Positions 1,536 to 55,256 are shown, counted from the first letter of the stretch. The stretch is DNA of 64,000 nucleotides from Candidatus Poseidoniaceae archaeon (GCA_964218365.1 CAXPMI010000041.1:1825-65824), one strand, 5' to 3'. Numbers and translations: made by a program. Notes: a model not told the origin generated them from the letters alone.

Positions 1536-1574
1536 TACGATGCTTCATATCAAGGAAATATTTCAGGTGTCAAT

Positions 1575-3566
1575 ATGGAACCTATTGGTGATGTAGCAAA
1601 CCCTGCATCCCTTGACCCTGAAAGTTTAGGTTTCATGTGTGGAATAGAAGTCCATCAGCAATTGGCAACTGGAAAATTGCACTCTAGACAACCAGGTGAA
1701 CTTCATGACATCACTATCGAAACACTACCGGAAGATTGGCAGCGTTACTATCGCAAATTACGCTCATCATCAGGTGAAGGCGGTGCAGTGGACGTAGCTG
1801 CAAGATTTGAGGCTCGAAGAAACCGGTCATTCGTTTACTGTCAAGCACCGAATGCAGGCCTAATTGAATTGGATGAACAACCGCCTTTGCCCCACGACAA
1901 AGACGCGCTAGACATCTCACTAACAGTTTCTGGAATGCTTGGAGCGCATCCAGTTCCATTGCTGCAGACAATGCGCAAAACAGTAGTCGATGGTTCCAAT
2001 ACTAGCGGTTTCCAGAGAACGACCCTTGTCGCTACAGACGGGGTGTTGGAAACAGAGGGTGGCCCAGTTGGAATAGACGTGCTTTGTCTAGAAGAAGACA
2101 GTGCGCGTAAGCTAGACAGTGAGTTGACTCCATCGGGCGAAGTAGTAACTTGGAACTTGGACAGGCTCGGAATTCCACTCATCGAAATTGCAACAGCACC
2201 TGACGTAAAGACCCCAGACCACGCAAAGCAAACCTCGATTGCACTGGGAAGAACTCTACGAGATACTAGGCGGGTTCGCAGAGGACTTGGTAGCATTAGA
2301 CAAGACTTGAATGTCTCAATTATGTGTGGAGACAGAGTTGAAATCAAAGGTTGTCAGGACTTGGAATGGATTCCAAGAATTATTAGATGCGAGATGGCAA
2401 GGCAACTCCACTTTTTCAGATTAGCAAACCAACTTAGAGAGATGCACGGCCTTCCTTTGCTACCTAATGACCGACGAGAAGAATCAGAATCGATTACAGA
2501 TCAGGTTAGTGAACTACTCCCAATGAAAATGGTTGATGTTTCTTCACGATTTGCGTCTTGTGAGGCAAATAGAGTAAAACAAGGGCTTGCTGAAAAATCA
2601 GTAATGTTAGCGCTACCATTACCAGGGTTCTCAGGCTTGATTGGAACCAAAGAATTCGATGCAGATGGAGCACAAATGCCACGTCTAGGTAGGGAACTCG
2701 CAGGTGCAGCAAAATTAGCAGGCGTAGCCGGAGTATACCACTCGGATGAATTGCCTGCTTATGGAATCGAACAGGAATTTGTTGATGCAACAAAGGATGC
2801 ACTGGAAGGATGCGACGCATTCGTTCTGTGTCTAGCGCCTAAATGGCAAGCAGAGTTAGCACTTGAGAGTGTACTCAACAGGGCGCGCCTGGCATTCGAA
2901 AGAATTCCTCAAGAGGTTAGAAATGTAGTCATCCGTAAAGGTTCGCCTGAAGACGGAACTACAACTCCAATGCGACCGTTACCCGGCGGTGCGAGAATGT
3001 ACCCGGAGACCGACATTCCTCCACTATCTATCTCACAAAACATGTGGAAACAGGTAATGGAAAACCTACCAATGACTCAAGATGAAAGGCGTTCAAGGTT
3101 GGAAAAGTTCGACATTAGCGAGGACCAACTCAAGCAGTTACTGTCTAGAGAATTGGACGATCACTTCGTATCTCATTCACAAGGCCTTCCTCAGAAAGCA
3201 TGGGCTACGATGTTATTGGAAAATGAAGGCAATATAGGGCTGATGGCGCTAGTTCTTGCTGCAAAAGAAGCAGGACATGTCACCAGAGAAGGAATGCAAC
3301 CCTTGCTCGTAGAGTTTGACGGGAAAAATCCGACCATAGACCAACTTTCCTCTAAAGCAGAAGAATTGGGCCTAAAGCCTGCAGATGCCAGTGATTTAGC
3401 CGATATTGTTGCCAGGGTAGTCTCAGGCCGCCTTGATTTCGTTAAGGAAAGAGGCATGGGTGCCATGGGCCCGTTAATGGGACTTGTGATGAAGGAATGT
3501 GGTGGCGCTGCAGATGGAAAGCAAGTCAGTGCTCTATTGCGAGAAGAAATCATGAGGCATGTTTGA
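1575..3566 (+). CDS. gatE: Glu-tRNA(Gln) amidotransferase subunit E (archaeal GatE)
   Basis: 663 aa. GatB/E core motifs GIEVHQQL, IPLIEIATAPD, GLGSIRQDLNVS. C-terminal YqeY/GatB-like tail GAMGPLMGLVMKE. AGGTG box upstream of the ATG. Confidence 0.9.
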   Translation: MEPIGDVANPASLDPESLGFMCGIEVHQQLATGKLHSRQPGELHDITIETLPEDWQRYYRKLRSSSGEGGAVDVAARFEARRNRSFVYCQAPNAGLIELDEQPPLPHDKDALDISLTVSGMLGAHPVPLLQTMRKTVVDGSNTSGFQRTTLVATDGVLETEGGPVGIDVLCLEEDSARKLDSELTPSGEVVTWNLDRLGIPLIEIATAPDVKTPDHAKQTSIALGRTLRDTRRVRRGLGSIRQDLNVSIMCGDRVEIKGCQDLEWIPRIIRCEMARQLHFFRLANQLREMHGLPLLPNDRREESESITDQVSELLPMKMVDVSSRFASCEANRVKQGLAEKSVMLALPLPGFSGLIGTKEFDADGAQMPRLGRELAGAAKLAGVAGVYHSDELPAYGIEQEFVDATKDALEGCDAFVLCLAPKWQAELALESVLNRARLAFERIPQEVRNVVIRKGSPEDGTTTPMRPLPGGARMYPETDIPPLSISQNMWKQVMENLPMTQDERRSRLEKFDISEDQLKQLLSRELDDHFVSHSQGLPQKAWATMLLENEGNIGLMALVLAAKEAGHVTREGMQPLLVEFDGKNPTIDQLSSKAEELGLKPADASDLADIVARVVSGRLDFVKERGMGAMGPLMGLVMKECGGAADGKQVSALLREEIMRHV

Positions 3567-5212
3567 TGAGGCAAATACTCGTTGTACTTTGCTTGCTTAC
3601 TTGTTTATTGATTCCCAATTCAATTGCTGATTCTGATAATCAAGAAAATTGGGAAGTGGATCTTGAAAACGGATATATCTCCACGAAACCGATTTTTATC
3701 GATGACCAAGTAATCGTCAGAACCTCGGGCTTTTGGACAGGAGAAGATAGACCTCACGTATACTCATTCGATGTTCAAAGTGGGATCGAGAATTGGAGAT
3801 TTTCAAACCCTAATTCAACCAATCACGACATGAGCCCACTTCTCCATATCAGTGCAGGTCAAGGCGAATGTGGCACCTGGCCAGACTTGATTTTAGTAGC
3901 ATGGACAGATGGTAAAGTTACAGCCCTAAATCCGGATGATGGCGGCTTAATTTGGTCATCAAAAACAGAGGTTGTAACTTGGGGCATAACTGGAGCGATG
4001 GCACAAGATGGTGAAAATCTCGTTGTACCCACAAGACAGGGTTTGTCTAGATTTTGTTTGAGTGATGGCACTGAAAACCTTAGAGTCGACTTACCGCAAT
4101 TAGGTTGGAGAAACGGAGTAACGATTACAGATGACAGTTACTTGCTAGGTAATGAAGAAGGAGTTCTCAACATAGTTTCCAAAGATGGTAATGTCACAAA
4201 TTTCACGCTAAGTCAAGGCATGATCCGCCATCCGCCAATAGTCACGACAGCAGGTATAATTTCACACTTGCAAACAAGTTCAGGCTCTGCGATTTATCTC
4301 GATACTGAATTGATATCTGAAGAAGGAAGGTCCCCAGCGATTCCTGTCAAGATTGGAAATAAAGTCTACTTCGGAACCAGCGAGAGTGTCAGCGTGTGGG
4401 TTTGTGAAACTGATTGCGTTCTAGAAGGAAGGTCAGAATTCCATACGAACGGTGAAATTACCATCGAACCTAATGGAGAAGATTCCGTTTTGTGGTACCC
4501 AAGAAATACTCAGCAGGGAGGTTGGGGTTACGGAATTCCCAGTGAAGAAATCAAATTGTTTTCCTCAAGTCATGATACTTACACCACAGCAGGAATGTCC
4601 TTTGGCCCAAATGGTGAGATGGCTTTTGGGAATGATGCAGGAGTTTTAGTGGTAATTCTAAGTGATGAAAATCTAAAATCAATCAAACAAGAAGATAGCC
4701 GCAGTTCATCTTTCCAAGCACATCCGGCACATTTCTTGATGGTAGGATTACTCCTTGGAATTGCCTATTCAATTTACAATTCCAATCGTGATTTAACAAA
4801 TAAGTTAGGAGTGTTGCTGATACTTGTCATAGCAGTTTTCACACTACCATCCGTTTCAGAAATCTGGTCAAAGGAAGTTGGCAAACTTACGGAGGGTTCA
4901 GGAGATTGGAATGACGATTGGCCAGATTCATGGAAAGAAACTCAGGTAGTAGTCTTTGAATTACCAGACGGAGAAATTGCTATTGGCGGCTTAACTGGTT
5001 ACGAGAATGTTGAACAGTTGACTGATGCCGCAGCTGCGGAATTGGGCGTAATTATCGAAAAGGAATCTTACAGCCTAGGAACAATGGTTGTATCAGTCGA
5101 TGGACACGAATTAGAGGGCTGGGAATTTACCATAGATGGAGAGAGAACACCGGTAGGAATTTCTCAAGCAGAGGTAAGCGAAGACTCCGTTGTACGATGG
5201 TCGGCAGCGTGA
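3566..5212 (+). CDS. Secreted PQQ/BamB-like beta-propeller protein with two TM helices and a C-terminal DUF4430-like (transcobalamin-like) domain
   Basis: Start moved to ATG 3566, which overlaps the gatE stop as TGATG. Signal peptide MRQILVVLCLLTCLLIPNSIADS. Propeller-type repeats (IENWRF, GGLIWSS). Hydrophobic helices FLMVGLLLGIAYSIY and LGVLLILVIAVFTLPSV. The tail GWEFTIDGERTPVGISQAEVSEDSVVRW resembles DUF4430 from memory. Confidence 0.6.
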   Translation: MRQILVVLCLLTCLLIPNSIADSDNQENWEVDLENGYISTKPIFIDDQVIVRTSGFWTGEDRPHVYSFDVQSGIENWRFSNPNSTNHDMSPLLHISAGQGECGTWPDLILVAWTDGKVTALNPDDGGLIWSSKTEVVTWGITGAMAQDGENLVVPTRQGLSRFCLSDGTENLRVDLPQLGWRNGVTITDDSYLLGNEEGVLNIVSKDGNVTNFTLSQGMIRHPPIVTTAGIISHLQTSSGSAIYLDTELISEEGRSPAIPVKIGNKVYFGTSESVSVWVCETDCVLEGRSEFHTNGEITIEPNGEDSVLWYPRNTQQGGWGYGIPSEEIKLFSSSHDTYTTAGMSFGPNGEMAFGNDAGVLVVILSDENLKSIKQEDSRSSSFQAHPAHFLMVGLLLGIAYSIYNSNRDLTNKLGVLLILVIAVFTLPSVSEIWSKEVGKLTEGSGDWNDDWPDSWKETQVVVFELPDGEIAIGGLTGYENVEQLTDAAAAELGVIIEKESYSLGTMVVSVDGHELEGWEFTIDGERTPVGISQAEVSEDSVVRWSAA

Positions 5213-5244
5213 AGTTGAAATCTTGAACCCTACAGGGCCTAAAC

Positions 5245-5904
5245 ATGGTAATGACCGACGGGGCACATGGTACAACTCTTGGCCCTGTTGAAATGCTAGT
5301 TCTGAATGTAATACTGATTTCATTCTCATTCTTCTTGCTGTGCCGTCCTTCTCAATCTGCAAAGCGTGAGATTTTGGTGTTGACTAGCATAACTACAGCA
5401 GCAGCAGCAAGCCGTATTTTGCTTGAGCCATTCCCTAACGTTCAACCATTGACAGTAATGTGTTTAGTAATGGGTGCATCACTGGGTGCTCGAAGAGGAA
5501 TGGCGTTTGCTGTAATGGCTACAATGCTCTCTAACCTAGTCTTGTCACACGGACTTTGGACTTTCTTCCAAGCGACCGGTTGGGCCGCAGTAGCATTTGC
5601 AGGTTCAAAGTTAGGGCTTGTGTTAGAGTCACAGGTTGCAATGAAGAGACTCCTTTATTCAGCCGTAATTGCTTCAGTACTATTCGATTGGTGGGTCTCA
5701 CTCTCCGTCCTTTCAAGCCTAACAACGGTCTCTGATTTCGGAATATATCTTCTGAACGGACTACCATTCGATGCTATCCATGCTATCGCTAGCATTGCAA
5801 GTGCGGTATGTATCGCGCCATATCTAGCAAATCTACTGCACGTCGAGACTGCGACTATGGAAGAGCCACTCTCTATTGGTGAGGCTGATGTCATCATTGC
5901 CTAA
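5245..5904 (+). CDS. Polytopic membrane protein, ECF-type S-component-like
   Basis: 219 aa with about 6 hydrophobic helices. Small-residue-rich helix LLEPFPNVQPLTVMCLVMGASLGARRGMAF. Family call is from memory only. Sits directly downstream of the DUF4430-containing gene. Confidence 0.4.
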   Translation: MVMTDGAHGTTLGPVEMLVLNVILISFSFFLLCRPSQSAKREILVLTSITTAAAASRILLEPFPNVQPLTVMCLVMGASLGARRGMAFAVMATMLSNLVLSHGLWTFFQATGWAAVAFAGSKLGLVLESQVAMKRLLYSAVIASVLFDWWVSLSVLSSLTTVSDFGIYLLNGLPFDAIHAIASIASAVCIAPYLANLLHVETATMEEPLSIGEADVIIA

Positions 5905-5914
5905 TGAAGTCACG

Positions 5915-6256
5915 ATGGTCCTAGTGACTCGTGATGACTTGAAATTGTCCAAAGGCAAACTCGCTGCACAGTGTTCGCATGCTGCGGTCAACTGCGCAAT
6001 GAAAGCGAAGAGAAAGGCTACACGCCTCTATGAGCGTTGGAATAATTTCGGTGCTAGGAAAATAGTAGTCAGAGCTGATGATGAGAGCCATCTCAGGCGA
6101 TTATACGCAAAGGCACTGGAAGGTAGTTTGGTTTGTGATTTGGTGAAGGATGCCGGACACACTGAGATCCCACCTGGTACTGTTACTGTGTTGGGAATTG
6201 GTCCTGCTCCAAGAGCAGCGGTTGATGCGATAACTGGCGACCTGAAACTGCTTTGA
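5915..6256 (+). CDS. pth2: Peptidyl-tRNA hydrolase, archaeal/eukaryotic Pth2 type
   Basis: DLKLSKGKLAAQCSHAAV and VTVLGIGPAP motifs. About 113 aa from ATG 5915, which lies after the upstream stop at 5904. ATG 5888 or TTG 5876 are alternative starts. Confidence 0.85.
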   Translation: MVLVTRDDLKLSKGKLAAQCSHAAVNCAMKAKRKATRLYERWNNFGARKIVVRADDESHLRRLYAKALEGSLVCDLVKDAGHTEIPPGTVTVLGIGPAPRAAVDAITGDLKLL

Positions 6257-6278
6257 GTGAAGTCGGTTTAGCATAGCC

Positions 6279-7319
6279 ATGCGCGAGTATCCCTCAGACC
6301 GTGTCGATGTCAGAAGTGACACTGTTACCCAGCCGACGCAAGCCATGCGCTCCGTAATGGAGACGGCGAAAGTTGGCGATGACGTTCTTGGCGATGACCC
6401 AACTGTCATCAAATTACAAGATCGTCTTGCAAAGATGTTTGGCAAAGAAGCCGCCTTATTCGTGGCTAGTGGGACAATGGCAAACGCAATCGCACTCAGA
6501 ACTCATACCGTGCCAGGCGACGAAATTGTTTGTGACAAGACCGCTCATATCTACAAGTATGAAGGTGGAGGGTATGCTGCACTGTGTGGAGCGTCAATCT
6601 CTCTCGTTGAAGGTAAAGGCGGCCTAATGACGGCTCAACAAGTCAAGAAAGCAATCCGCAAGGCAGAAGGCTCTGGTTCACACTATCCTGATGGAACTCT
6701 AGTCTGTGTGGAAAACACCTCCAATCTCGGTGGCGGTGCATGCTATTCACAAGAGGCATTAGACGAAATTGCCGCGGTAGCCAAAGAAAACGGATGTGCT
6801 ACTCACATCGATGGCGCTAGAATATTCAACGCATCCATTGCAACAGGAGTAGATGTTGCTAGAATGTGTAGAGATTATGATTCGGTTTCAATTTGTCTTT
6901 CAAAGGGACTTGGCGCCCCTGTAGGCTCAGTATTGGTAGGCTCTCAAGAGTTCATCAACAAGGCTCACCGTTGGCGCAAGATGTTTGGCGGTGGTTGGAG
7001 GCAAGCAGGTGTTCTTGCGGCTGCTGGATTACACGCACTAGACCATCACATTGAGCGTTTGGCTGAAGATCACATTCGCGCAAGAAGAGTTGCAGAAGCG
7101 ATTGATTCGATGGATAATTTCAGCGTTGACTTGCAAGCAGTTCAATCGAACCTTGTCTACGTTAATTGCAACATACCTGCCTCGGAGGTTGTGGCATCAT
7201 TGGCTGAACATGGAGTTGACATGTTTGACTTACCATACAATCGTGTAAGGGTCGCAATTCATCTGCACATTACCGATGAAGATGTTGACAGAATTATTGC
7301 TGCTTTCGCTGCACAATAG
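6279..7319 (+). CDS. ltaE: Low-specificity L-threonine aldolase (PLP-dependent)
   Basis: DVRSDTVTQPT, GDDVLGDDPTV and SGTMAN motifs. PLP-lysine context SICLSKGLGAPVGS. 346 aa. Confidence 0.85.
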   Translation: MREYPSDRVDVRSDTVTQPTQAMRSVMETAKVGDDVLGDDPTVIKLQDRLAKMFGKEAALFVASGTMANAIALRTHTVPGDEIVCDKTAHIYKYEGGGYAALCGASISLVEGKGGLMTAQQVKKAIRKAEGSGSHYPDGTLVCVENTSNLGGGACYSQEALDEIAAVAKENGCATHIDGARIFNASIATGVDVARMCRDYDSVSICLSKGLGAPVGSVLVGSQEFINKAHRWRKMFGGGWRQAGVLAAAGLHALDHHIERLAEDHIRARRVAEAIDSMDNFSVDLQAVQSNLVYVNCNIPASEVVASLAEHGVDMFDLPYNRVRVAIHLHITDEDVDRIIAAFAAQ

Positions 7320-8196
7320 CCGCTGCAAACATTGTGATTCCAATTACTGCAACAAGTCCAATACTTGGCAAGCTATCATCGTCATCCTCTTCGGAGACTT
7401 GAGGTTCTTCCTCTGGTTCCTCTGCCTGTGGTAAAATGACTTCGTGAATTAGGTGGACCTCTAAATCATCGCCATCGTAGGCTGTTGGCATTGTGACTTC
7501 CATTGTACCGGTAGTTGCGTTTCCTAATTCGATGATACCTCTCACGCTCTTGTTGTAGTATTCTTCTTCGTTACCACCGTCTGGGAAGTAAGCAAGTTTT
7601 TCTACAATCCAAAGCGATGATACGATTTCACTATCTTCCGGGAAGTTAGCCATATCCACTACAAGATTCCAAGTAACTACAGGGTTTGAGCCATTGGAGA
7701 CAGCCCATCCTAGTGAGGATGAACCGATTCCCAAATCTAGTGAATTCGCTAGGTTCTGATTGTAATCATCTTGCAGAGAGTTACCGTCAGGGACACTACC
7801 TATTTGTCGAATAGTTCCGTTGAAAACAGCGGTCGGAGGTAGCCTCTGTTCGTATCTTTCTATCCACCTGTCATCTCCTTCTTGTGAGCCAAGAGGGTCC
7901 TCGGTTTCTCCGATAAATCTGTGAAAGTGGTACGTTTGCATATTGTTTTCAGGCTCGATATCTTTCAGAGCATTTTCCACCGATATGCAATTTGTGCACC
8001 ATGTTGCTGTGTAATCTTCAACAATTGCTGGTAAATCAGAAAGTGTGCTCGTAGCATTACCAGACACATTTGCATCTACATGCATTCCACCAAATACCGC
8101 TCCTAGGTCATCTAAGGTCTGAGGACTTCCTGCCTGAGAATTTGGCATTGGCGACAATAATAGAACCAATGCAACCAGTAAAATTCGAGTGCGCAT
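7294..8196 (-). CDS. Secreted thioredoxin-fold-like protein with C-terminal membrane anchor
   Basis: Signal peptide MRTRILLVALVLLLSPMPNSQAG. CxxC in YTATWCTNC. Acidic linker EEPEEEPQVSEEDDDD, then TM IGLVAVIGITMFAAAIV. 26-nt convergent overlap with ltaE. Confidence 0.5.
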   Translation of the reverse strand: MRTRILLVALVLLLSPMPNSQAGSPQTLDDLGAVFGGMHVDANVSGNATSTLSDLPAIVEDYTATWCTNCISVENALKDIEPENNMQTYHFHRFIGETEDPLGSQEGDDRWIERYEQRLPPTAVFNGTIRQIGSVPDGNSLQDDYNQNLANSLDLGIGSSSLGWAVSNGSNPVVTWNLVVDMANFPEDSEIVSSLWIVEKLAYFPDGGNEEEYYNKSVRGIIELGNATTGTMEVTMPTAYDGDDLEVHLIHEVILPQAEEPEEEPQVSEEDDDDSLPSIGLVAVIGITMFAAAIVQRKQQ

Positions 8197-8283
8197 ATTA
8201 CTCCCACCTTTCGCTTTATTTTCAATGGTTTTGTCTTTAGTTCAACGCGTGGGTTCAAGAACCACCGTCTCTGAGTTTGCCCG

Positions 8284-11200
8284 TTGGCGGGCCTGAATAT
8301 GTTGAGCGAGGTAGTCGTAGCGAAGACCCAACTGTCGATGGAGGCAGTTCCCGCAGGTCAAGCTATGCCAGATTGGTTGATCTCTTCCTTAGTAGAAGGT
8401 AAGCGATTGATGGTTATTCATCCGTCTGAACAATGTAGAAAGCAGTCCATTGAGATGCTGCATGAACTAGGTGGTGGAAAAGCAATTGATACATCTCACC
8501 ACTTGACAATTAATCGGTTAGTCGGCATTCTACACGTCGACCTTCGCCTCCCAGTATTACTTTCAGATGATGGAATTTTGTTTGAGAAAACCCATCGGGC
8601 CTTGAATGAAGAAGCATCCGGAGAAACCTTTTCGGATATTCTTTCAAGTCCCAATCAAAAGTGGTCTCGCTCGAGAACTCGAAGACTACTATCACTCTAC
8701 AAGGAGTTGACAAAACTCAAGAGACCGTGGGACTGGCAGGACGATCCAGGGGCAAGAACTTGTGATAAGGTACTACAAGCGATGGAATCAAAATTGCAAG
8801 CAACACACCCACTTCGTCTGAAAAGAATCGTTTGGCAAACTCTGAAGGAAACGGAGAAAATACCGTTTACAATATCTGATGTTGAAGGTATCATAATGTT
8901 GGACCACCCTTCCAATATCACAGAGGTTGAAATAGAAATCATTAGAGAAATATCGAGATTAAAACCCGTTCACCAATTGGTGAATCCTGGCTCACATAGG
9001 CTTGGTTACCATGGTGAATATATCGAAGATATCTCAACAACAAGAAGGAATGAGGACCTACCAAAATGGGTACCGCCTCATGATGTTTGGGCTCCAAGAT
9101 CACTCCCGGGATGGTCATCACCCATTTCTGAAAAACGAAACAGAGAAATCAATCACTTGATGTGTGAATCCAATAGCCAGACTCATCTGGCTTTAGCAAG
9201 TATCCTAAGTCAAATCGAGGGAGATGTTGTCGTAGTTACAGGCGATGTAGAGAGCCTGAATTTTCGGCTTGGACCCTATCTCCATTCAATCGGATATCAT
9301 TCCAAAGGAGAATCGGTGAAGGTAAGGGATACCAGTGGAGTAGCACGATTGCTTTCGATTGCCGAAATCTCTAGAGGACAAGAGGCGTGGTCTCTAAACA
9401 ATCTAACACAGTTATGGAACCAAATCGAATTACCAATGCTTTGGGATATATTTGATTTGCAACATCCAGTTCATCAAGATTGGAAACCAAGGCTGCATCC
9501 AGAAATCCTTTCAGAAATAGCGAGAGGTTTCCATCTACTTGGTGGGAGAGGTGCATTGAGAAGATGGCAGTCCACATTGAATACTGCAAGGCCAAGGGCC
9601 GGCGTCAATACAAAGCAAAGAGAACAAAAACTAGAGGAATGCCAATGGTGGATATCTTGCATTTCGAATTGGCTATACCCAACATTGTCAGGTTATGATA
9701 AAAAAGACGTGACCAGAGAATTAATTGGATGTTCTTCAGGAGAACAACTTCCCCTCCCAAACCAGCCAAAAGACGTGATAGGTTGGATTAATTCTTGTCT
9801 GAATCAAATAGATTGGGCGACCCTAGCATCACGGGATGAATTGTTTTCCAGTACTTTACCGGGCTTGCAGAATTTCACTGCCTCAATCAACAGGCTAAAA
9901 GAAGAAAATATTGAATTAAACTCTGAAGATTTCATTGAAATTTTGGATTTAGTTACTTCACATGATGAGATAAAAGGCAGTTCATCAAGTGATAACGGAA
10001 TCAAGATTCTCTCTCCTTCCCAAGCATATGGGATTCAAGCGGAGTATCTTATCCTGTGCGATATAGACGCAGAATCTTGGTCGATGAAGACCCCGCAAGT
10101 ACCTTGGTTGGATGAAGGCACTAGAATGAAAATAGGCCTGCATAGGCCTGATGAACCATTAAGGGTAGCAAGACATCAACTCAGACATTTTCTCAATTGT
10201 TCACAATACGTTGTGATCATTGATTCCAGTATCGAAGAGGGTATTGAACTCACAGGGCCATTAGATGAATGGTTCAATGAAATATCCAAAGATGGTGGCA
10301 TAAATAGCCTGAACGAAGCACCTAGTTATCTCGACTCTAGTCAATGGAGCCCCGAGACAGTCGATAGGTCCTGGGAATGGAAGATTGTTCGTAACCAATC
10401 GAAATTAGTCTACCGGGTAGCGTCGATGGAAATCGAAAAATCCGTAGTCAGAACTCACAGAAGTGGTTTCTTAGGCCGTGATGAAATACAGCGAGCAGGC
10501 TTAGCATCGATAGAATCTCGCAAGCCAAAACTTCAGCCTCTTAATCCAAATGGGCTAATTGTCGCTTCCGAAACTGAGGTACTGAGCGATCAACTATCAA
10601 GAAGAAGAACGGGTGACGATTTAGGGATTGGCCAAATTCATCCTTTCGCTAGTGCATCACAAAGAGTACTATCATCCGACATGAAATTACTTCCAACGAA
10701 AACGAAGCCAGCTGATGCCAGAGATTCAGAAGTATGGCCACATCTGGGGATAATGGGGAAAAAGGGCCTTGGAATTCCAATCGATCCGAGGCCGATTCAA
10801 CCTCCATCTACTACTTTGAAAGAGTTAGATGAAATCACTGGACGAAGTATGATAAAACTCAATTTACCAAAGGTTTGGTCACAAGGAAGACTCCAATCAT
10901 GGCTCGAATGTCCTCGCAGAGCATGGTTTGAGAAACACATGTATCTTGGAGACAGTGACCAAATGGAGGAAGATTTGGCAGCATCAACTCGTGGAAACAT
11001 CGTCCACGTTGTAGAAGAAGCAATTCTTCGAGCACACGGGCTTGACGAGAATGGTGTAGCACCTACTCCTTTTCCACTCTTTGCAGGTAGTTTAGGTAGT
11101 GTAGAAAATGCTTGGCAAATCGCTTTGGAGACTCTAGCGGAAAATGCAACATGGATGCAAAGAGAAGACGGCATTTCTGCGCATCGTTGCAGAGATTTGA

Positions 11201-11976
11201 TTGGGGTCAGTCCAATTCAATGGAAAGAGTGGCTAGAACATAGTACACCGATTCCAATAGGTGGAAGAATCGGGCGAATGATTGAGAGTGATTTTGCTCT
11301 AACCAACGTAGCACCAATCGCAACAGAGTGGGAACTTTCAGGTGAAGATGGTAAGCATGTAAGAATTGAATTACCAGAATCATCTGAAGATTCATTCCTC
11401 CTTCGTGGTCGTATTGATAGGGTTGATCAATTAGTCAACATTGGCACCGAAGAATCAGAAACTCAGGAAATTGTTCCATTAGATTTCAATTTAGATGAAC
11501 CTCCAAAATCTAACCGCTTGATTATTCTCAGAGATATCAAATCAATAGATGGCGCAAAAGATAATGGCGACAGTGAAAGGCACTTGAAGGGGATATTCAA
11601 TGAACTACAATTGGCTTTGTACGCAAGAGCCTGGGAGGTAGCAAATCCTGGAGACAGAGTGATCGGCGTAGGTGCAACTCAGGTAGGTAATCAAACCCAG
11701 CATTATGTTGAAATCGATCCAGAATATTTCGATTTATGCACCCAACTAAACGTTGGGATTGTAGGCGGAGACACACATGGACATTACAGGATGCCTGGTA
11801 ATTCAAAGGATGAGAAATCAAACCCATTCAGAGCTTGGATGAGAGAAAGAATCACTACAGCAATTCGTGTAATCAAGAGTGCAAAATCCGGCAATATCCA
11901 TCCTGAACCTTCACGCATGTGCAAATACTGTCCAATTAGTGACGCTTGTCCAAGCGCCCAAAGAGGTGGTTGGTGA
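8284..11976 (+). CDS. addB: AddB-like subunit: degenerate helicase-like body plus C-terminal RecB-family (PD-(D/E)XK) nuclease with iron-staple cysteines
   Basis: 1230 aa (TTG 8284; in-frame ATG at 8299). I found no GK[ST] Walker A. Nuclease motifs GNIVHVVEE, GRIDRVD, ILRDIKS, QLALYARAW. Cys in WLECPRRAW plus terminal CKYCPISDAC (C-x2-C-x5-C). Its stop overlaps the next gene's ATG. Confidence 0.75.
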   Translation: MAGLNMLSEVVVAKTQLSMEAVPAGQAMPDWLISSLVEGKRLMVIHPSEQCRKQSIEMLHELGGGKAIDTSHHLTINRLVGILHVDLRLPVLLSDDGILFEKTHRALNEEASGETFSDILSSPNQKWSRSRTRRLLSLYKELTKLKRPWDWQDDPGARTCDKVLQAMESKLQATHPLRLKRIVWQTLKETEKIPFTISDVEGIIMLDHPSNITEVEIEIIREISRLKPVHQLVNPGSHRLGYHGEYIEDISTTRRNEDLPKWVPPHDVWAPRSLPGWSSPISEKRNREINHLMCESNSQTHLALASILSQIEGDVVVVTGDVESLNFRLGPYLHSIGYHSKGESVKVRDTSGVARLLSIAEISRGQEAWSLNNLTQLWNQIELPMLWDIFDLQHPVHQDWKPRLHPEILSEIARGFHLLGGRGALRRWQSTLNTARPRAGVNTKQREQKLEECQWWISCISNWLYPTLSGYDKKDVTRELIGCSSGEQLPLPNQPKDVIGWINSCLNQIDWATLASRDELFSSTLPGLQNFTASINRLKEENIELNSEDFIEILDLVTSHDEIKGSSSSDNGIKILSPSQAYGIQAEYLILCDIDAESWSMKTPQVPWLDEGTRMKIGLHRPDEPLRVARHQLRHFLNCSQYVVIIDSSIEEGIELTGPLDEWFNEISKDGGINSLNEAPSYLDSSQWSPETVDRSWEWKIVRNQSKLVYRVASMEIEKSVVRTHRSGFLGRDEIQRAGLASIESRKPKLQPLNPNGLIVASETEVLSDQLSRRRTGDDLGIGQIHPFASASQRVLSSDMKLLPTKTKPADARDSEVWPHLGIMGKKGLGIPIDPRPIQPPSTTLKELDEITGRSMIKLNLPKVWSQGRLQSWLECPRRAWFEKHMYLGDSDQMEEDLAASTRGNIVHVVEEAILRAHGLDENGVAPTPFPLFAGSLGSVENAWQIALETLAENATWMQREDGISAHRCRDLIGVSPIQWKEWLEHSTPIPIGGRIGRMIESDFALTNVAPIATEWELSGEDGKHVRIELPESSEDSFLLRGRIDRVDQLVNIGTEESETQEIVPLDFNLDEPPKSNRLIILRDIKSIDGAKDNGDSERHLKGIFNELQLALYARAWEVANPGDRVIGVGATQVGNQTQHYVEIDPEYFDLCTQLNVGIVGGDTHGHYRMPGNSKDEKSNPFRAWMRERITTAIRVIKSAKSGNIHPEPSRMCKYCPISDACPSAQRGGW

Positions 11977-14900
11977 TGATTGAATTCAATGTCTCACAGA
12001 GTCTTGGTTTGGATATCAATCGACATATTGCAATAGATGCGGGAGCGGGTACTGGAAAGACCACTGTTATGGCTAGCAGATATCTGCAGCATCTCTTATC
12101 GGCAGACCAAAGAGCAACTCGGATTTTGCCTTCAGCTCCTAGAATCCCTTTGAAGGGAATGGGTGCAATTAGAGTACCATCTAAAGAAAGAACAGACCTA
12201 GAGGATTGGCAAGGACTGTTGCCTACTGAAACAGTTGCTATTACCTTCACAAAGAAAGCAGCAGCAGAATTGAAGGGTCGCATTAGAAGATTGATTGCAA
12301 ATTTAGATTCAGAATCAGAAAATCGTTTGACCAAACAAGGGGATGTAGCAATGCTATTATCGCTAGTCGATGACGCTCCTATTTCAACAATAGACTCGTT
12401 TTTGTCTTCGATTGTATCTCCGTGGATGGGATTGGTTTGTGAGGACCCCACCAGTGAGCAGTTAGAGGAAGATGGTGCTGTATTCCTGAGAGATGAGGCA
12501 ATTAGGACAGCATGGAGGCTGCAGAGAGGGTTAGAAGGTAAAGAGGTAGGAATGTCTGGCGACATTGAAGCCTTCCTCGAATCACGAGATAGACTCTCAG
12601 TACTACTCGGTGGCCAGGACTCATCTGCGAAAGTCGTCAAGGGTATGCTTAAGCGTTCTCTGTTCGTTGAAGAAGCCTCTAGGAAATTACAATTGAGCGC
12701 TGATGGCAGTCTTCAGGCTGAATCTTTAAATCAATTATTTTTGCAATCTGTGGCGAATTTTATCGACGATTGGTATCAATCATTCAGGGTACATGTCTGC
12801 GGTTGGGTAGACGCTTGGCTTGATGCAGGTGCTGCGTTTGTAATCGGAGCCGATGAACCCGTGGGAATGACTCGGTTCCGCTATGTTCAGTTCTTGAGCA
12901 CTCTAGAGCCCGAAGAACAAATTGAGAAATTACAGTGGATTTGGTTGGTATCTCACGCCGTTACAACGGCTTCCAACCTCAAAGATATAAATTGTAAATC
13001 TCTTTACAGAGCTAGGCCGCCAAAAGGTAACGGATGGCCTTCAGGCATTATGACAAAAGGAAACTGCCCTCTTCAAAATTCGGTTAAAGATATGATATCG
13101 GCGAATGCAGAATCCTATGCAGATTCTATCAGAATGATGTTACATACACCGATAGGATTGCTGATTAGGATTTTAGGGCAGTCATCTCATCTACTGAATC
13201 CTCAGATTTCTGACCCTGAACCGGTGCCCGGCCAAACAGCATATCCTCCTCGATTGGGTATTGATTTACCTCAAACTCCACCTTCACTAGAAATGAGGTT
13301 AACCACCGAATTAGAACTTCAAGTCGTTCGTGATTTGTTTATTGTGAACGCAGGGGTAGGAGAGATTTTGTCTCGATTGAAGTCTCAGGAGGGAGTTAGA
13401 GACCACGATGACATGCATCGATTGGCTGAAGATTTACTCCTAACTAGATGCCCATCTGTCTGCAGAGGATGGTATCCGAAATCTGTAGTTGACGCTTTGG
13501 ATTCTTTAGGGGAAAAACCATGGCAAGATGGGCATTTATTCCGTGCAATAAGCGCAAGTCAAGGCAATGAAGAAGTTCACAAAGATTTGATGCGAAGAAT
13601 AGGAATTCTCAGAGATTTGAGAAGACAATATCGGGCATTTATTATAGACGAGTACCAAGATACAAATCCTCAGCATTTCAGACTTTTAGCCAGGCTTTGG
13701 GGAAGAAGGAGATTGGAAGAAGGTGAACCTGCACCACCCGCCTCTGAATGGGACCCTACAATCTGCATTGTCGGCGATATGAAGCAATCGATCTATCGAT
13801 TTAGGCAAGCAGAAGTTACTGTTATGCGTAGGGCTGTTGCCGCAATTAGGGAAATGAATAGAGAAGAGTCGGCGATGGAGAATCGTACCGATTCGTTGAG
13901 GAGGCCAGACTTTGCAAAAGACCCAAGAGTGGTAAAGTCAATGTCATTCAACAAAGGAACTGAAATTAAAAATAAGGGTCAAGGAAGAAGGGAATGGATA
14001 CCTTTCTTAGAAAGCGATGATGGAGAAAATGTACCTCATGAATCTCTAATTCGACGCAGAGAAGGGCATATTGAAATGTCGACCAATCACAGAACTTTAG
14101 CTAAATTGATGAATACAATGAACGTGATTTTCCAAGATACATTTTCTCAAAGACATCACTTACTGCCTGGGCCTTGGCACGCTGAACCTCAAGATTTGAA
14201 CCCTGCTAGAGATTCTGAGAGGGTCGCAAAATTGGAGTGGGTACTTCCTGCAAGAACCGGAGTTGGCCCAAGGCCACTCGAGATGGGCACAGGTATCGAC
14301 CCATTCCAGTTTGATGGCTCTGATGATAGAGAACTCACTGCAAACTTACTCGCAAAGAGAATTGCAGCACTTGTTGATGGTAAATCAGCTCGAATATACA
14401 ATTCCAATGAAAAATCTTGGATCGATGTAAGCGAGGATAGGATCTACCGCCCAGAAGACATCATGATTCTAGTTGCATCTCATGCAAGGGTTCCCCTTTT
14501 GGTCAAAGCTCTAGATGAACACGGTGTTCCAGCAATTGCTGGTAAGCAAGGTTTGCTGATGTTTAGACCAGCAATTCAAACATTGATGTCACTTCTTTGG
14601 TTAATGACCTCTCCGTATAACAAGACTGCTGCGTTAGCAGTAACCCGTTCAGCAATCGTAGGAATGAACGATTCAGAAGTAATTACATACTTCCAAAAAA
14701 ATGAGGGAAATCATCTCAGCAATCTAGCAAAATACGCACCAACCGATGAAGCAAAATCTCTTTTCCAGAGGTTGAATTATTTTGTTGAGAATGGCAAGGT
14801 TAGGAAAGCGATAGACGTAGCAATAGACCATTCTGATTTATTGTATGCATTCCCAAGAGAGGGAGACCGGCAGGATGTTGAAAATTGGCTTTCGATGTAT

Positions 14901-16754
14901 GATAGAATCTCAGATGGTTGCGGTGGAGATGCTGCATTGGTTTTCAATCAACTCAGGGAATTAAGGAATCTGGAAAAAGATGGCCCAAAAAGCAGTTCAT
15001 CGGGTACCGGAGGCGCAGTTCAAATCATGACAATTCACGGCTCTAAAGGTCTTGAAGCACCAGTAGTGGTAGCCTATGACATATTTGCCACTGGAACAAG
15101 AGATTCATCGTTCTCATCATCGGATAACGTCCTTGTAACGCCCGATATTATTGCAGGTAGAATACATCCTTGGCGTGGCATTAGTAAGCCAAAGAGCGGC
15201 CTATGGACAGTTGCCCATTTATTCGATGATGGGCAACAGAGAGCGGAGAGAAGAAGGCAATTCTACGTCGCTTTGACTAGAGCCAGAGACCGCCTAATTA
15301 TCGCAGGTACTCCAAGCGAAGGTGCTGTAGTTGATGAAAATGAAAGAATCAGCTTCAAACGAGGAAAAGGTCGTCAAAACATGGGCTATATGTTCCTCGA
15401 TGGACTAGCTTACGCTAGCATCAATTCAGGAAATGGAGGATGTGCTTGGTCGCAAGGAGGGCTTGAGCAAGAAGGTAATACAATTGCACTAAATCCAGGT
15501 GAGTTAATCGGGCAATCCTATCTCGGAGATGGTTGCGTTGAGGGCATTTCCATATTCCACCATCCCGACTGCTTTGAGCAAAGCCAGAACATCGCAATAG
15601 TGGAATCTTGGAGGGAAAGGCTAGAGTTGGCAAAGAGCCCAGTCGGACTTGAAGATACTAGAGAATTGCGAAAAATCTCTTGTTCGGTTCCGATGGCATC
15701 ACATGGTTTAGACGCCGCTTGGTCCTGTAGAAGGCGTCATTGGCTTACAAACAAAATGAACTGGAATGCAGAGCGGTTCGACTTAATCGCTGATGAATTC
15801 CAGGAAGGAAAGTGGCCTAGTGCTGCAGAATTTGGTTCACTATTCCACAGGCTACTAGAGATTGGTTTGGCTAATCCTGGTTCCACAACTAAAGACCTCG
15901 ATACCAAGTGGACAGAGTCACAAAGCGATAATTTGACAGATTCCAAAACGATAGAAGAAGTAATGGCTCAATCCACTATTTCCGAGGAAGATGTTCTTGA
16001 AAGAACAAAATTACGACTATTGCACTTAGGAAAATTAGCAAGAAACGGGGCTTTAGGAAGACTCGTTGCTAGTGAAAAATATGACGGATTTGTAGTGGAG
16101 GGGTTGAGGACTGAATTGCCGTTTTACCTGTCGCTTGAACACAAACCAAAAGGTCTCCACAGAACTTCATGGAGTCCTCGTGGGGAGTTTGTTATATCAG
16201 AAATTGAAGCGATAAAATCCATTTTCAACGGTAGGGCTGATTTAGTGTTAGCACTCAGAGATGATGATGGCCAAGGTTGGCTTCAAGTCGTGGATGCTAA
16301 GACAAAACAGTGTTTGTACGGGTTTAATCCTTCAAACCCACTAGAAGGGAATGATCTGCAAATTTCCTTGGATGAGGATTCTCCCTATCCTGCTACGGAA
16401 GCAGAGGAAGAAATTCTCCAAGAACATAGGTTACAACTGACACTTTACAGTATTGCGCTTGAAGTTGGAGAGATGGCAAAGCCAGTAGAAGAGAGAAGGA
16501 GGATTTTGCCTCCTGCAATACAAGTATCAGCATCTGGCAGAATGATTAGGATGCGTGACGAAGAATTCGAATTAGCCAAGCGAGATTTGGATTCGTTAAT
16601 ACAATGGTCTGGAGAAGTGTCGGTTGCAGATGAAGGGAAAGAAGCACCAAAGAGGCTTCCTGTTGAACAAAAATCTACGTGTGAAAAATGCCCGTTCTAC
16701 ACTGGCACAATCAAGTTATGTGGCCCTATTGGTGAGAAGCTCGGCCCATCATGA
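11976..16754 (+). CDS. addA: AddA-like subunit: SF1A UvrD/Rep-type helicase fused to a C-terminal RecB-family nuclease
   Basis: Start at ATG 11976 (TGATG overlap, GAGGTGG box upstream). Helicase motifs: I DAGAGTGKTT, Ia ITFTKKAAAELKGRI, II IIDEYQDTNP, III VGDMKQSIYRFRQA, IV STNHRT, V TIHGSKGLEAP, VI YVALTRARDRLIIAG. Nuclease motifs: FGSLFHRLLE, GRADLVL, VVDAKTK, QLTLYSIAL, CEKCPFYTGTIKLC. Confidence 0.85.
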   Translation: MIEFNVSQSLGLDINRHIAIDAGAGTGKTTVMASRYLQHLLSADQRATRILPSAPRIPLKGMGAIRVPSKERTDLEDWQGLLPTETVAITFTKKAAAELKGRIRRLIANLDSESENRLTKQGDVAMLLSLVDDAPISTIDSFLSSIVSPWMGLVCEDPTSEQLEEDGAVFLRDEAIRTAWRLQRGLEGKEVGMSGDIEAFLESRDRLSVLLGGQDSSAKVVKGMLKRSLFVEEASRKLQLSADGSLQAESLNQLFLQSVANFIDDWYQSFRVHVCGWVDAWLDAGAAFVIGADEPVGMTRFRYVQFLSTLEPEEQIEKLQWIWLVSHAVTTASNLKDINCKSLYRARPPKGNGWPSGIMTKGNCPLQNSVKDMISANAESYADSIRMMLHTPIGLLIRILGQSSHLLNPQISDPEPVPGQTAYPPRLGIDLPQTPPSLEMRLTTELELQVVRDLFIVNAGVGEILSRLKSQEGVRDHDDMHRLAEDLLLTRCPSVCRGWYPKSVVDALDSLGEKPWQDGHLFRAISASQGNEEVHKDLMRRIGILRDLRRQYRAFIIDEYQDTNPQHFRLLARLWGRRRLEEGEPAPPASEWDPTICIVGDMKQSIYRFRQAEVTVMRRAVAAIREMNREESAMENRTDSLRRPDFAKDPRVVKSMSFNKGTEIKNKGQGRREWIPFLESDDGENVPHESLIRRREGHIEMSTNHRTLAKLMNTMNVIFQDTFSQRHHLLPGPWHAEPQDLNPARDSERVAKLEWVLPARTGVGPRPLEMGTGIDPFQFDGSDDRELTANLLAKRIAALVDGKSARIYNSNEKSWIDVSEDRIYRPEDIMILVASHARVPLLVKALDEHGVPAIAGKQGLLMFRPAIQTLMSLLWLMTSPYNKTAALAVTRSAIVGMNDSEVITYFQKNEGNHLSNLAKYAPTDEAKSLFQRLNYFVENGKVRKAIDVAIDHSDLLYAFPREGDRQDVENWLSMYDRISDGCGGDAALVFNQLRELRNLEKDGPKSSSSGTGGAVQIMTIHGSKGLEAPVVVAYDIFATGTRDSSFSSSDNVLVTPDIIAGRIHPWRGISKPKSGLWTVAHLFDDGQQRAERRRQFYVALTRARDRLIIAGTPSEGAVVDENERISFKRGKGRQNMGYMFLDGLAYASINSGNGGCAWSQGGLEQEGNTIALNPGELIGQSYLGDGCVEGISIFHHPDCFEQSQNIAIVESWRERLELAKSPVGLEDTRELRKISCSVPMASHGLDAAWSCRRRHWLTNKMNWNAERFDLIADEFQEGKWPSAAEFGSLFHRLLEIGLANPGSTTKDLDTKWTESQSDNLTDSKTIEEVMAQSTISEEDVLERTKLRLLHLGKLARNGALGRLVASEKYDGFVVEGLRTELPFYLSLEHKPKGLHRTSWSPRGEFVISEIEAIKSIFNGRADLVLALRDDDGQGWLQVVDAKTKQCLYGFNPSNPLEGNDLQISLDEDSPYPATEAEEEILQEHRLQLTLYSIALEVGEMAKPVEERRRILPPAIQVSASGRMIRMRDEEFELAKRDLDSLIQWSGEVSVADEGKEAPKRLPVEQKSTCEKCPFYTGTIKLCGPIGEKLGPS

Positions 16755-22620: not shown

Positions 22621-22893
22621 ATGACGAATAACACTATACTGCCCGATGTATCTGAAGGAGTCGCAGAACCCTCTGCATCTCGTGTAATTCTTGTCTTGAT
22701 GAGCGTTGGTCTTGTTGGCCTAATCGCCTTATTTAGCAACATTTTCGGTTGGGATACAGTTCCAGTAATTGGCGACATAATTCCGTTCATGGATAACCTA
22801 GGTGGCTCAGGAATCTGGTACTACCTCATTGGTATCCTTGTCGGTTGTGGAATGATCGTCGCAAATCTAGTTGGAGGCGTCCTTTCGGACTGA
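22621..22893 (+). CDS. Small two-TM membrane protein
   Basis: 90 aa. Helices VILVLMSVGLVGLIALF and IWYYLIGILVGCGMIVANLV. GGTGA box upstream. Immediately precedes the large membrane protein. Confidence 0.55.
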   Translation: MTNNTILPDVSEGVAEPSASRVILVLMSVGLVGLIALFSNIFGWDTVPVIGDIIPFMDNLGGSGIWYYLIGILVGCGMIVANLVGGVLSD

Positions 22894-22906
22894 AGGTGGG
22901 ATACAA

Positions 22907-31966: not shown

Positions 31967-32661
31967 TCCTCTCCAAGTGCTTCAATGCAAACTTGTTGCA
32001 GGAATGAACTTCCGTCTCCAATGTCGACGTCATCTAGGACGGTTAGTCTGGCAGCGCCCATGCCGGTTCCTAGGAGAACAATCTCCTTTGCACGTGCGAC
32101 CAACCTCTCATTTAGTCTCCCTTCACTAATGACAAAACCAGATTTCTCAATGTGCGGTTTGACTACGTCATATGTCACTGAATCTACACCGCCAAATTCT
32201 GGACCACTAATCCACACAACACCGTCTTCGTCTAGCACTATCGGCATTACTCTATCACCATCTACTATGCAATGCTCGTGAACTAATAGTGCGACATCTG
32301 CTCCTTTGCTGAATGCATCGGTGGTTATTTTCCTGTAAGCGTCCCAGTCGCCGTGTTTAGTACCAGAAATCTTCCTTGTCCATCGAGGTGCAGGTGCTGT
32401 TACGCCCTCGGCCTCCATGTGAATTTCCTGGTAGAATGGTTTGGTCGAAAACTGGGCGCCATTTGCGTCTACTTGGATTCGAACTAAGCCATTGAGCCCT
32501 TCTGGTATATCGAAATCAGGAATTTCAATTCCTAGTTTCTCAGCATGACGTGATAATCTAGCAAGGTGGTAATCCAAATGGAATAGGTTCCCATCTCTGG
32601 CCCTAACGGTTGTGAAAACCGCACTTTTTGGTCCCACCATCATGGCATCACAACAGGTCAT
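31957..32661 (-). CDS. pabC: Class IV aminotransferase-fold protein, aminodeoxychorismate lyase-like
   Basis: 234 aa. DYHLARLSRHAEKLGI, GTKHGDW (candidate PLP Lys), GADVALLV, IVDGDRVMPIV, KEIVLLGTGMG. 10-nt overlap with the pabB-like start. Confidence 0.6.
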   Translation of the reverse strand: MTCCDAMMVGPKSAVFTTVRARDGNLFHLDYHLARLSRHAEKLGIEIPDFDIPEGLNGLVRIQVDANGAQFSTKPFYQEIHMEAEGVTAPAPRWTRKISGTKHGDWDAYRKITTDAFSKGADVALLVHEHCIVDGDRVMPIVLDEDGVVWISGPEFGGVDSVTYDVVKPHIEKSGFVISEGRLNERLVARAKEIVLLGTGMGAARLTVLDDVDIGDGSSFLQQVCIEALGEDWR

Positions 32662-55238: not shown

Positions 55239-55253
55239 CACCCCGTAGGGGTG
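55239..55253. promoter_or_regulatory. GC hairpin CACCCC-GTA-GGGGTG, immediately upstream of the ATG at 55257
   Basis: Perfect 6-bp stem with a 3-nt loop. A second 6-bp/3-nt hairpin AGAGCC-GGT-GGCTCT lies at 55202-55216 in the same 73-nt divergent spacer. Confidence 0.35.
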
Positions 55254-55256
55254 AAA

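Follow-up and report, generated by a model that had tools for sequence, protein, structure and literature searches.

Introduction

The published literature treats RecBCD and AddAB as helicase-nucleases of bacteria and assigns Mre11-Rad50 with HerA-NurA to archaea (PMC12977600; PMC9960219). It has been reported that H. volcanii, a mesophilic archaeon, has no HerA-NurA (PMC7776575), and a passage of PMC2887965 cites Cromie (2009) as suggesting transfer of addAB "even into the archaea". For the closest described systems, the AddAB of Bacillus subtilis and the AdnAB of mycobacteria, mechanistic roles have been described for AddB, AdnA and their iron-sulphur (Fe-S) clusters, and the published structures describe a cluster in these two subunits only (PMC3321194; PMC13000450). 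In our study, we analysed a stretch of 64,000 nucleotides (nt) from a Candidatus Poseidoniaceae archaeon (GCA_964218365.1 CAXPMI010000041.1:1825-65824), here called the window, and centred on the two adjacent genes at positions 8284-16754. We consider it probable that this pair encodes an AddAB-type heterodimeric helicase-nuclease that is a core chromosomal enzyme of Candidatus Poseidoniales (Marine Group II). In the surface ocean, no planktonic archaea are more abundant than these, and end resection in mesophilic archaea is poorly understood.

Results

A coupled gene pair on a Marine Group II chromosome

A scan of the window for open reading frames (ORFs) found two long frames on the plus strand, at 8284-11976 (ORF1) and 11946/11976-16754 (ORF2). 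The initial annotation had described them as translationally coupled, and the signals that it named were all located: the TGA of ORF1 and the ATG of ORF2 have one base in common (11976), a Shine-Dalgarno-like element precedes the second start, and the junction reads ...AAAGAGGTGGTTGGTGATGATT.... The length of 1230 amino acids (aa) first given for ORF1 holds for a frame open from TTG 8284, but the start is likely ATG 8299, because the closest homologues measure 1225 aa; the closest ORF2 homologue measures 1592 aa. Residues of ORF1 are numbered from TTG 8284.

8299 to 11976, plus strand: ORF1, the AddB-like subunit gene, 1225 aa from ATG 8299 (1230 aa from the upstream TTG 8284)
11963 to 11969, plus strand: Shine-Dalgarno-like GAGGTGG, 6 nt 5' of the ORF2 ATG
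11974 to 11978, plus strand: stop/start overlap TGATG, translational coupling (TGA of ORF1 at 11974-11976, ATG of ORF2 from 11976)
11976 to 16754, plus strand: ORF2, the AddA-like subunit gene, 1592 aa, with a UvrD-type motor of helicase superfamily 1A (SF1A) and a C-terminal nuclease

The archaeal neighbourhood noted at the outset was also confirmed. Genes for MCM and a GatE-type amidotransferase lie directly upstream of the pair, and the rest of the window has an ordinary housekeeping character, with FtsZ, isocitrate dehydrogenase and a malic enzyme-PTA fusion among its products. The window belongs to a Marine Group II archaeal chromosome, since all named homologues of both ORFs come from metagenome-assembled genomes called Candidatus Poseidoniales, Poseidoniaceae, Thalassarchaeaceae or "Euryarchaeota archaeon". 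In public records the two proteins carry the generic names "PD-(D/E)XK nuclease family protein" and "UvrD-helicase domain-containing protein".

ORF2 carries a motor and a nuclease

Judged from its motifs, ORF2 combines a complete, conserved SF1A motor of the UvrD/PcrA type, predicted to run 3'->5', with a RecB-family nuclease whose catalytic residues are intact. Pfam found UvrD-helicase, UvrD_C and PDDEXK_1, and the NCBIfam models ranked recB first (TIGR00609, 141.5 bits), followed by addA_Gpos (TIGR02785, 140.3 bits), TIGR02784 (113.4 bits), pcrA (81.8 bits) and uvrD (49 bits). The best sequence match among solved structures was AddA (3u44_A, E 4.9e-20). These results bear out the earlier AddA-type call, and the UvrD/Rep motifs I to VI and the separate nuclease on which that call was based were all located and found conserved. 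Motif Ia reads VAITFTKKAAAELKGRI and motif IV reads EMSTNHRTL; the positions of the others are listed below. Conservation was assessed in family alignments of 29-47 members with identities down to 28% for ORF1 and about 40% for ORF2, in which the motif, catalytic and cysteine residues of both proteins are invariant or at least 90% conserved. Because this holds in members as distant as 28% identity, the motif residues are not a matter of chance but are under selection.

12036 to 12065, plus strand: motif I (Walker A) DAGAGTGKTT, at least 90% conserved
13638 to 13673, plus strand: motif II FIIDEYQDTNPQ (DEYQD), invariant
13770 to 13811, plus strand: motif III VGDMKQSIYRFRQA, invariant
15030 to 15056, plus strand: motif V TIHGSKGLE, core residues invariant
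15264 to 15296, plus strand: motif VI YVALTRARDRL, core residues invariant
15693 to 16751, plus strand: nuclease domain, predicted to be of the iron-staple (Fe-S) type; mean predicted local distance difference test score (pLDDT) of the model 87.8
15726 to 15728, plus strand: distal Cys1251 (AWSCRRRHWL) at the start of the nuclease domain, at least 90% conserved
16230 to 16247, plus strand: nuclease motif GRADLV, catalytic residue invariant
16287 to 16304, plus strand: nuclease motif VVDAKT, catalytic residues invariant
16434 to 16448, plus strand: nuclease motif QLTLY, catalytic residues invariant
16680 to 16721, plus strand: C-x2-C-x9-C cluster CEKCPFYTGTIKLC (C1569, C1572, C1582); C1569 and C1572 at least 90% conserved, and the consensus retains LCGP

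The invariant nuclease residues are D1422, D1440, K1442, Q1487 and Y1491. The initial annotation had seen this nuclease but overlooked its conserved set of one distal and three terminal cysteines. Some 100 residues follow QLTLY and end with C1569-x2-C1572-x9-C1582, and the cluster is also present in the most deeply branching relative that we found. When a model of the domain (residues 1120-1592) was compared with known structures by Foldseek, the ten matches at E<=1e-3 were all Fe-S nucleases, with AdnA as the best and AddB, Dna2 and the Cas4-family ACE1 among the others; at the same threshold, the nucleases of AddA, RecB and AdnB were not among the matches. Three Firmicutes AddA and two haloarchaeal AddA-like proteins end directly after QxxxY and have no such cysteines. 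Residues and model alike thus predict a second Fe-S site, located on the motor subunit, as a distinguishing feature of the Poseidoniales enzyme, with no claim of uniqueness.

ORF1 resembles AddB

The sequence and the structural model of ORF1 point to a helicase fold of four subdomains without motor motifs, followed by a nuclease with intact catalytic motifs and iron-staple cysteines. A regular-expression scan of the whole protein found no GK[ST] P-loop, in agreement with the initial annotation, and neither Walker A nor Walker B is present. Pfam matched solely PDDEXK_1, at the C-terminus. All the RecB-type nuclease motifs quoted earlier were recovered, including GNIVHVVEE at aa 904, and the set C876/C1213/C1216/C1222 has the AddB iron-staple spacing first proposed for it, from which Fe-S binding is predicted. 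The same C-x2-C-x5-C spacing is found in Firmicutes AddB and in AddB-like proteins encoded on haloarchaeal plasmids.

8374 to 10593, plus strand: N-terminal degenerate SF1 (UvrD-like) helicase fold, without Walker A or other motor motifs; boundaries approximate, model confident
10606 to 10794, plus strand: linker between the helicase-like and nuclease domains, probably flexible (pLDDT below 50, model residues 745-807)
10876 to 11973, plus strand: putative AddB-type iron-staple nuclease domain of the RecB family (Pfam PDDEXK_1, E 1e-14)
10909 to 10911, plus strand: predicted distal Fe-S ligand Cys876 in WLECPRRAW (aa 873), invariant in the family
11407 to 11427, plus strand: nuclease motif GRIDRVD (aa 1042) with catalytic Asp1045, which is invariant; the heptad is identical in the Firmicutes AddB consensus
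11524 to 11544, plus strand: nuclease motif ILRDIKS (aa 1081; D1084-x-K1086), invariant
11608 to 11634, plus strand: QxxxY motif QLALYARAW (aa 1109), Q1109 and Y1113 invariant
11920 to 11949, plus strand: C-x2-C-x5-C cluster CKYCPISDAC (C1213, C1216, C1222); C1216 invariant, C1222 at least 90% conserved

An AlphaFold2 model of residues 31-1230, built with 47 family sequences, had a mean pLDDT of 81.7. Searched against the PDB with Foldseek, its five best matches were AddB chains of B. subtilis AddAB, aligned over their full length with E-values from 7.5e-20 (4cei_B) to 5.7e-18; AdnA followed (E 3e-15), then PcrA/UvrD (about 1e-10 over some 700 columns) and RecC (7e-10), with AdnA and RecC also aligned over the full length. 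Profile comparisons with hhalign link the same proteins in two steps. The ORF1 family aligns with the haloarchaeal AddB-like proteins (probability 97.8%, E 9e-13) over 519 columns, which begin in the second helicase-like lobe, take in the nuclease and reach the terminal cysteines, and the haloarchaeal proteins align with Firmicutes AddB (probability 99.6%, E 1.5e-24, 798 columns). Compared directly with Firmicutes AddB, the ORF1 family aligned at E 1.3e-5 over the N-terminal half of the nuclease, pairing the WLECPRR cysteine and GRIDRVD of ORF1 with their AddB counterparts. On the strength of the haloarchaeal intermediates and the Foldseek ranking, ORF1 is therefore assigned as an AddB homologue, with a predicted dead UvrD-like fold and a nuclease that appears catalytically intact, and the AddB-type call of the initial annotation stands. 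ORF1 lies directly upstream of ORF2, and adjacency and overlap are conserved in related genomes as well; by analogy with AddAB, the two products are predicted to form a heterodimer.

The order of the structural matches also bears on the number of motors. With AdnA second and RecC among the matches of ORF1, and with the ORF2 nuclease nearest to that of AdnA, the pair could be read as a dual-motor enzyme like AdnAB or RecBCD and not as a single-motor AddAB type. We regard this as very improbable. ORF1 has neither Walker motif, whereas AdnA retains both and binds nucleotide (PMC3321194; PMC13000450). A RecD-like SF1B gene is found neither beside the pair nor elsewhere in the 64-kb window, and both flanking genes lie on the opposite strand and are unrelated to it. 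The ORF1 nuclease is intact, unlike that of RecC, and the solved-structure sequence matches of ORF2 include AddA, whereas AdnB was not among them.

An old core operon of the order

Relatives of ORF1 were sought in one genome per species of the GTDB and found at 451 places, of which the best 80 were examined. All of these belong to Poseidoniales, with both families represented. Their gene order is MCM, GatE, a pyrroloquinoline quinone (PQQ)-repeat protein, DUF6580, threonine aldolase, a membrane protein (minus strand), the AddB-like gene, the AddA-like gene, a methyltransferase (minus strand), a hydrolase and, further on, phosphatidylserine decarboxylase and a radical S-adenosylmethionine (SAM) protein, and it is retained even at 34% identity. 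The AddA-like gene directly follows the AddB-like one in 76 of 79 loci, the exceptions being contigs that end there, and the 1-nt stop/start overlap or an ATGA overlap is seen in 55 of 67 related loci. Within the order Poseidoniales, the pair is a core operon of long standing that has been passed on vertically; its ultimate origin would presumably be bacterial. The initial annotation had remarked that the pair might turn out to be common and annotated across the lineage, in which case its novelty would be reduced. It is indeed common, under generic names only.

The most divergent full-length pair that we found, at 26-30% identity to the window proteins, lies at 2865113-2888607 of a 3.0-Mb metagenomic contig (ENA ERZ26167216), in the same frame from MCM-GatE through the pair to phosphatidylserine decarboxylase and radical SAM. 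Its five proteins in the protein collection are all singletons, so that the contig may come from a deep relative of Poseidoniales that has so far gone unsampled.

Contamination with bacterial DNA, chimeric assembly and recent horizontal transfer had been considered from the start, given that the enzyme type is typically bacterial, and two related contigs do bear bacterial labels, "Flavobacteriales bacterium SP80" (PAZG01000017.1) and "Verrucomicrobiales bacterium ARS100" (NZEQ01000040.1). The first carries GatE, MCM and then an AddB-like gene, and the second GatE and an AddB-like gene, in the archaeal synteny; both are therefore evidently mis-binned Poseidoniales contigs. Along the window, GC content stays level, and its value at third codon positions of ORF1 and ORF2 (0.356 and 0.365) is at the low end in comparison with the other large genes (0.369-0.426). 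The tetranucleotide correlation of 8284-16754 with the rest of the window is r = 0.928, against a mean of 0.932 (standard deviation 0.035) for equal-sized segments, and ranks 10th lowest of 56. A tblastn search with ORF1 and with the ORF2 nuclease domain gave no match in PLSDB, a plasmid collection of 7.3 Gb in which some entire bacterial chromosomes are also filed. Since the composition is native and the synteny, with MCM and GatE upstream, recurs in about 80 independent assemblies, the two mislabelled bins among them, we rejected misassembly, contamination and recent transfer, the likelihood of which we put close to nil. What survives of the horizontal acquisition first proposed is a possible bacterial ancestry, not a recent arrival.

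A profile search with the trimmed ORF1-family alignment matched 435 of 1.84 billion representatives at E<=1e-3; the 150 matches listed (E<=2e-19) comprise full-length proteins of family length and short fragments. No bacterial donor lineage was identified in this way, because the bulk of bacterial AddB is evidently beyond the reach of the profile.

Repair, defence and a possible mechanism

Because the housekeeping context is conserved and a defence partner is lacking, we favour a role in repair and at replication forks. Bacterial RecBCD and AddAB degrade phage DNA, and the pair could accordingly be, first of all, an anti-virus or anti-plasmid nuclease that degrades invading linear DNA, and not a recombinational repair enzyme; in PADLOC, ORF2 matches GajB models and ORF1 weakly matches Cas4. 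UvrD-Cas4 fusions have been linked to defence islands, where families of this type lie in variable contexts with GajA, type III restriction-modification or Dcm-Vsr (PMC5704561). The Poseidoniales pair, on the other hand, is lineage-wide and not patchy, sits in a conserved housekeeping neighbourhood without defence genes and has no partner such as GajA. Its PADLOC matches reflect generic UvrD homology at 65 bits or less, while the same protein reaches 141 bits on recB/addA. We consider a primary defence role unlikely. Its specific Gabija (GajB)-like or UvrD-Cas4 form was rejected on the grounds of these generic matches and of the conserved context.

For the AddAB-type repair enzyme that we favour, a mechanism can be proposed on the model of AddAB from B. 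subtilis and AdnAB from mycobacteria. The complex would bind a duplex DNA end, and its single motor, in ORF2, would translocate 3'->5', drawing the 3' strand first through the motor and next through ORF1's dead helicase domain. That strand would be passed on to the ORF2 nuclease and cut there, while the displaced 5' strand would be cut by the ORF1 nuclease, whose Fe-S module might help to split the strands. By analogy with AddB and RecC, the N-terminal fold of ORF1 may be a module that scans single-stranded DNA and reads Chi: many W, H and R residues of the dead domain are invariant in the family alignments, and such aromatic and basic residues are compatible with sequence scanning of the kind seen in Chi recognition. 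A lineage-specific Chi-like signal in the 3' strand could then attenuate 3' cutting, so that a 3' tail would remain for RadA, the recombinase of archaea. Destruction of linear foreign DNA would be a side effect.

It is important to note that several points count against this interpretation. The haloarchaeal AddB/AddA-like pairs are plasmid-borne and some of them adjoin defence genes, for which reason a defence-first role stays a minor rival. On NCBIfam, only the alphaproteobacterial AddB model (TIGR02786) matched ORF1, at 24.2 bits for a cut-off of 486.5 (the AddB equivalog models considered were TIGR02773, TIGR02774 and TIGR02786, with cut-offs of 486-904 bits). This low score does not disqualify ORF1, because a genuine Bacillus AddB, which reaches 1502 bits on its own model, also obtains 24 bits on TIGR02786; the AddB subfamilies are thus very divergent from one another. 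ORF2, too, falls below the equivalog cut-offs of 696.05 (TIGR00609), 707.65 (TIGR02785) and 860.75 bits (TIGR02784). Among PDB sequences, neither phmmer with ORF1 nor the ORF1-family profile retrieved AddB, yielding just a weak Cas4 match and noise. The global template modelling (TM) scores of the ORF1 model to AddB are low (0.35-0.38). Such values are expected when a multidomain, flexible protein is modelled in the absence of partner and DNA, but they still limit the structural certainty. Heterodimer formation, Fe-S binding and the strand assignment are inferred, and cooperation with RadA purely so. A k-mer scan of the 64 kb, a window too small to be informative on this question, gave no Chi-like word: over-represented 6- to 8-mers had z-scores of at most about 4.6, and the top words were mostly palindromes, none of them strand-skewed.

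A wider proposal is doubtful in our own estimate, if less so than the defence alternative. An anciently acquired AddAB-type enzyme may have replaced HerA-NurA, possibly along with Mre11-Rad50, in Poseidoniales, where it would feed RadA and be governed by a Chi-like sequence of its own, read by the strongly conserved dead-helicase domain. A second, lineage-specific [4Fe-4S] site on the 3'-strand nuclease of the motor subunit would then place the enzyme under redox- or iron-sensitive control, for which the characterised AddAB, AdnAB and RecBCD enzymes offer no precedent.

Other features of the window

Apart from the pair, three large genes drew our attention.

22871 to 25111, plus strand: protein of 746 aa with EF-hand calcium-binding motifs (aa 591-646) and a C-terminal SAP DNA-binding motif (aa 713-746)
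32648 to 40972, minus strand: giant ORF of 2774 aa amid housekeeping genes, no Pfam match at E<=1e-3
55251 to 58628, plus strand: ORF of 1125 aa, no Pfam match

The combination of EF-hand and SAP motifs is eukaryote-flavoured for an archaeon. Between about 24000 and 28000, the cumulative GC skew climbs to about 26 kb and then falls, and this turn coincides with a switch from mostly plus-strand to mostly minus-strand genes; it may mark a replication landmark or only reflect a transcription-linked skew.

Discussion

Novelty and significance

An AddAB in an archaeon is not new in itself, because such pairs sit on haloarchaeal plasmids. Our literature searches for AddAB in Marine Group II found no prior description, nor did we find in the literature an account of the Poseidoniales family, of an order-wide chromosomal core operon, of the extreme divergence or of two Fe-S cysteine sets. 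A whole, ecologically dominant archaeal order has a conserved helicase-nuclease of probable bacterial type as a core gene pair. In these uncultured organisms, the pair is a concrete candidate for initiating recombination, restarting broken forks and limiting or permitting the uptake of foreign DNA, and it bears on the homologous replacement of proteorhodopsin genes that has been proposed for Poseidoniales (PMC6461757). As a single-motor variant of the AddAB type, with Fe-S predicted in both nucleases and a B subunit that lacks a nucleotide site, the enzyme could help to separate structural from possible regulatory roles of the iron staple. Its presence throughout the dominant archaea of the surface ocean and its putative dual iron-staple design should be of interest for studies of archaeal recombination and of Fe-S nucleases.

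Comparison with known helicase-nucleases

HerA-NurA with Mre11-Rad50 presumably performs the same task, the production of 3' tails at double-strand breaks for RadA (PMC12977600), with unrelated proteins and an unrelated mechanism, a hexameric FtsK-like translocase and a NurA dimer. Genes for Mre11, Rad50, HerA or NurA were not found in the 64-kb window. Literature searches on these four in Poseidoniales returned nothing, and the supplements of the Poseidoniales phylogenomics paper contain no such terms.

With mycobacterial AdnAB, the Poseidoniales enzyme would share a heterodimer of two subunits that each combine a UvrD-like part with a RecB-type nuclease. In AdnAB the Fe-S cluster is in AdnA, the subunit that does not provide the driving motor, and AdnA ranks second among the structural matches of ORF1 and first among those of the ORF2 nuclease. 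The differences are that ORF1 lacks the nucleotide-binding motifs that AdnA keeps, and that ORF2 has four cysteines, unlike AdnB, an active motor described without an Fe-S cluster. RecC, for its part, has a degenerate and inactive nuclease-like domain, unlike ORF1 with its intact nuclease motifs.

The AddAB (RexAB) of Firmicutes such as B. subtilis gave the top structural match for ORF1 and, among solved structures, the top sequence match for ORF2, and it shares with the Poseidoniales pair a two-gene operon with addB first and an overlapping stop and start. The order addB then addA, which the initial annotation had compared with that of bacteria, is the same in the Bacillus, Listeria and Pusillibacter loci that we compared. 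Two of the records in this comparison, from a Bacillus sp. (NZ_CP093325.1, 5.5 Mb) and Listeria monocytogenes (NZ_CP030101.1, 2.9 Mb), are filed as plasmids but are chromosome-sized and hold genuine chromosomal addB-addA operons. The architecture is also alike, with an SF1A motor and RecB nuclease in the A subunit and, in the B subunit, a dead helicase fold of the UvrD type followed by a nuclease that bears a distal Cys plus C-x2-C-x5-C. Four differences set the Poseidoniales enzyme apart. Its B subunit has no Walker A or nucleotide-binding loop, whereas Firmicutes AddB has GxxGxGK[ST] at the N-terminus; the motif is present in the three Firmicutes AddB proteins tested and absent from ORF1 and the haloarchaeal AddB-like proteins. 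Its A subunit is some 350 aa longer than the Firmicutes AddA examined and has large insertions. Where Firmicutes AddA ends right after QxxxY, ORF2 continues with the extra C-x2-C-x9-C module, which together with its distal Cys predicts an Fe-S-type nuclease. Finally, the host is an archaeon, unlike that of bacterial AddAB, and the recombinase would for this reason be RadA and not RecA.

The closest comparison is with the AddB-like/AddA-like pairs of haloarchaeal plasmids, which are annotated generically as PD-(D/E)XK nuclease and UvrD-helicase; a search of the plasmid collection gave 29 records with a match, mostly haloarchaeal. Examples are Halobacterium salinarum R1 PHS3, Haloferax lucentense pSVX82-3 and Haladaptatus sp. 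QDMS2. In the haloarchaeal plasmid loci L084, L085 and L086, the pair spans 1280-8325, 1436-8616 and 1770-8454, respectively. These pairs occur on plasmids, with a patchy distribution, and defence-type or helicase genes lie near two of the three that were examined in context: one adjoins a BREX-5 pglZ and a MutH/Sau3AI endonuclease, another a DEAD-box helicase, while for the third, on H. salinarum PHS3, no defence gene is obvious nearby. Compared with the Poseidoniales pair, they are much closer to bacterial AddAB, with 331-341 bits on the addA models and, for the B subunit, the strong hhalign match to Firmicutes AddB given above, and their A subunit has no C-terminal cysteine cluster, unlike ORF2. 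At the same time, the haloarchaeal AddB-like proteins are the closest detectable sequence relatives of ORF1 outside its family, and the AddA-like ones are the best BLAST matches of ORF2 outside Poseidoniales, in a small set of two haloarchaeal proteins and three Firmicutes AddA. The two archaeal pairs have in common their gene order, a P-loop-less B subunit with C-x2-C-x5-C and, in the A subunit, an identical Walker A, AGAGTGKT.

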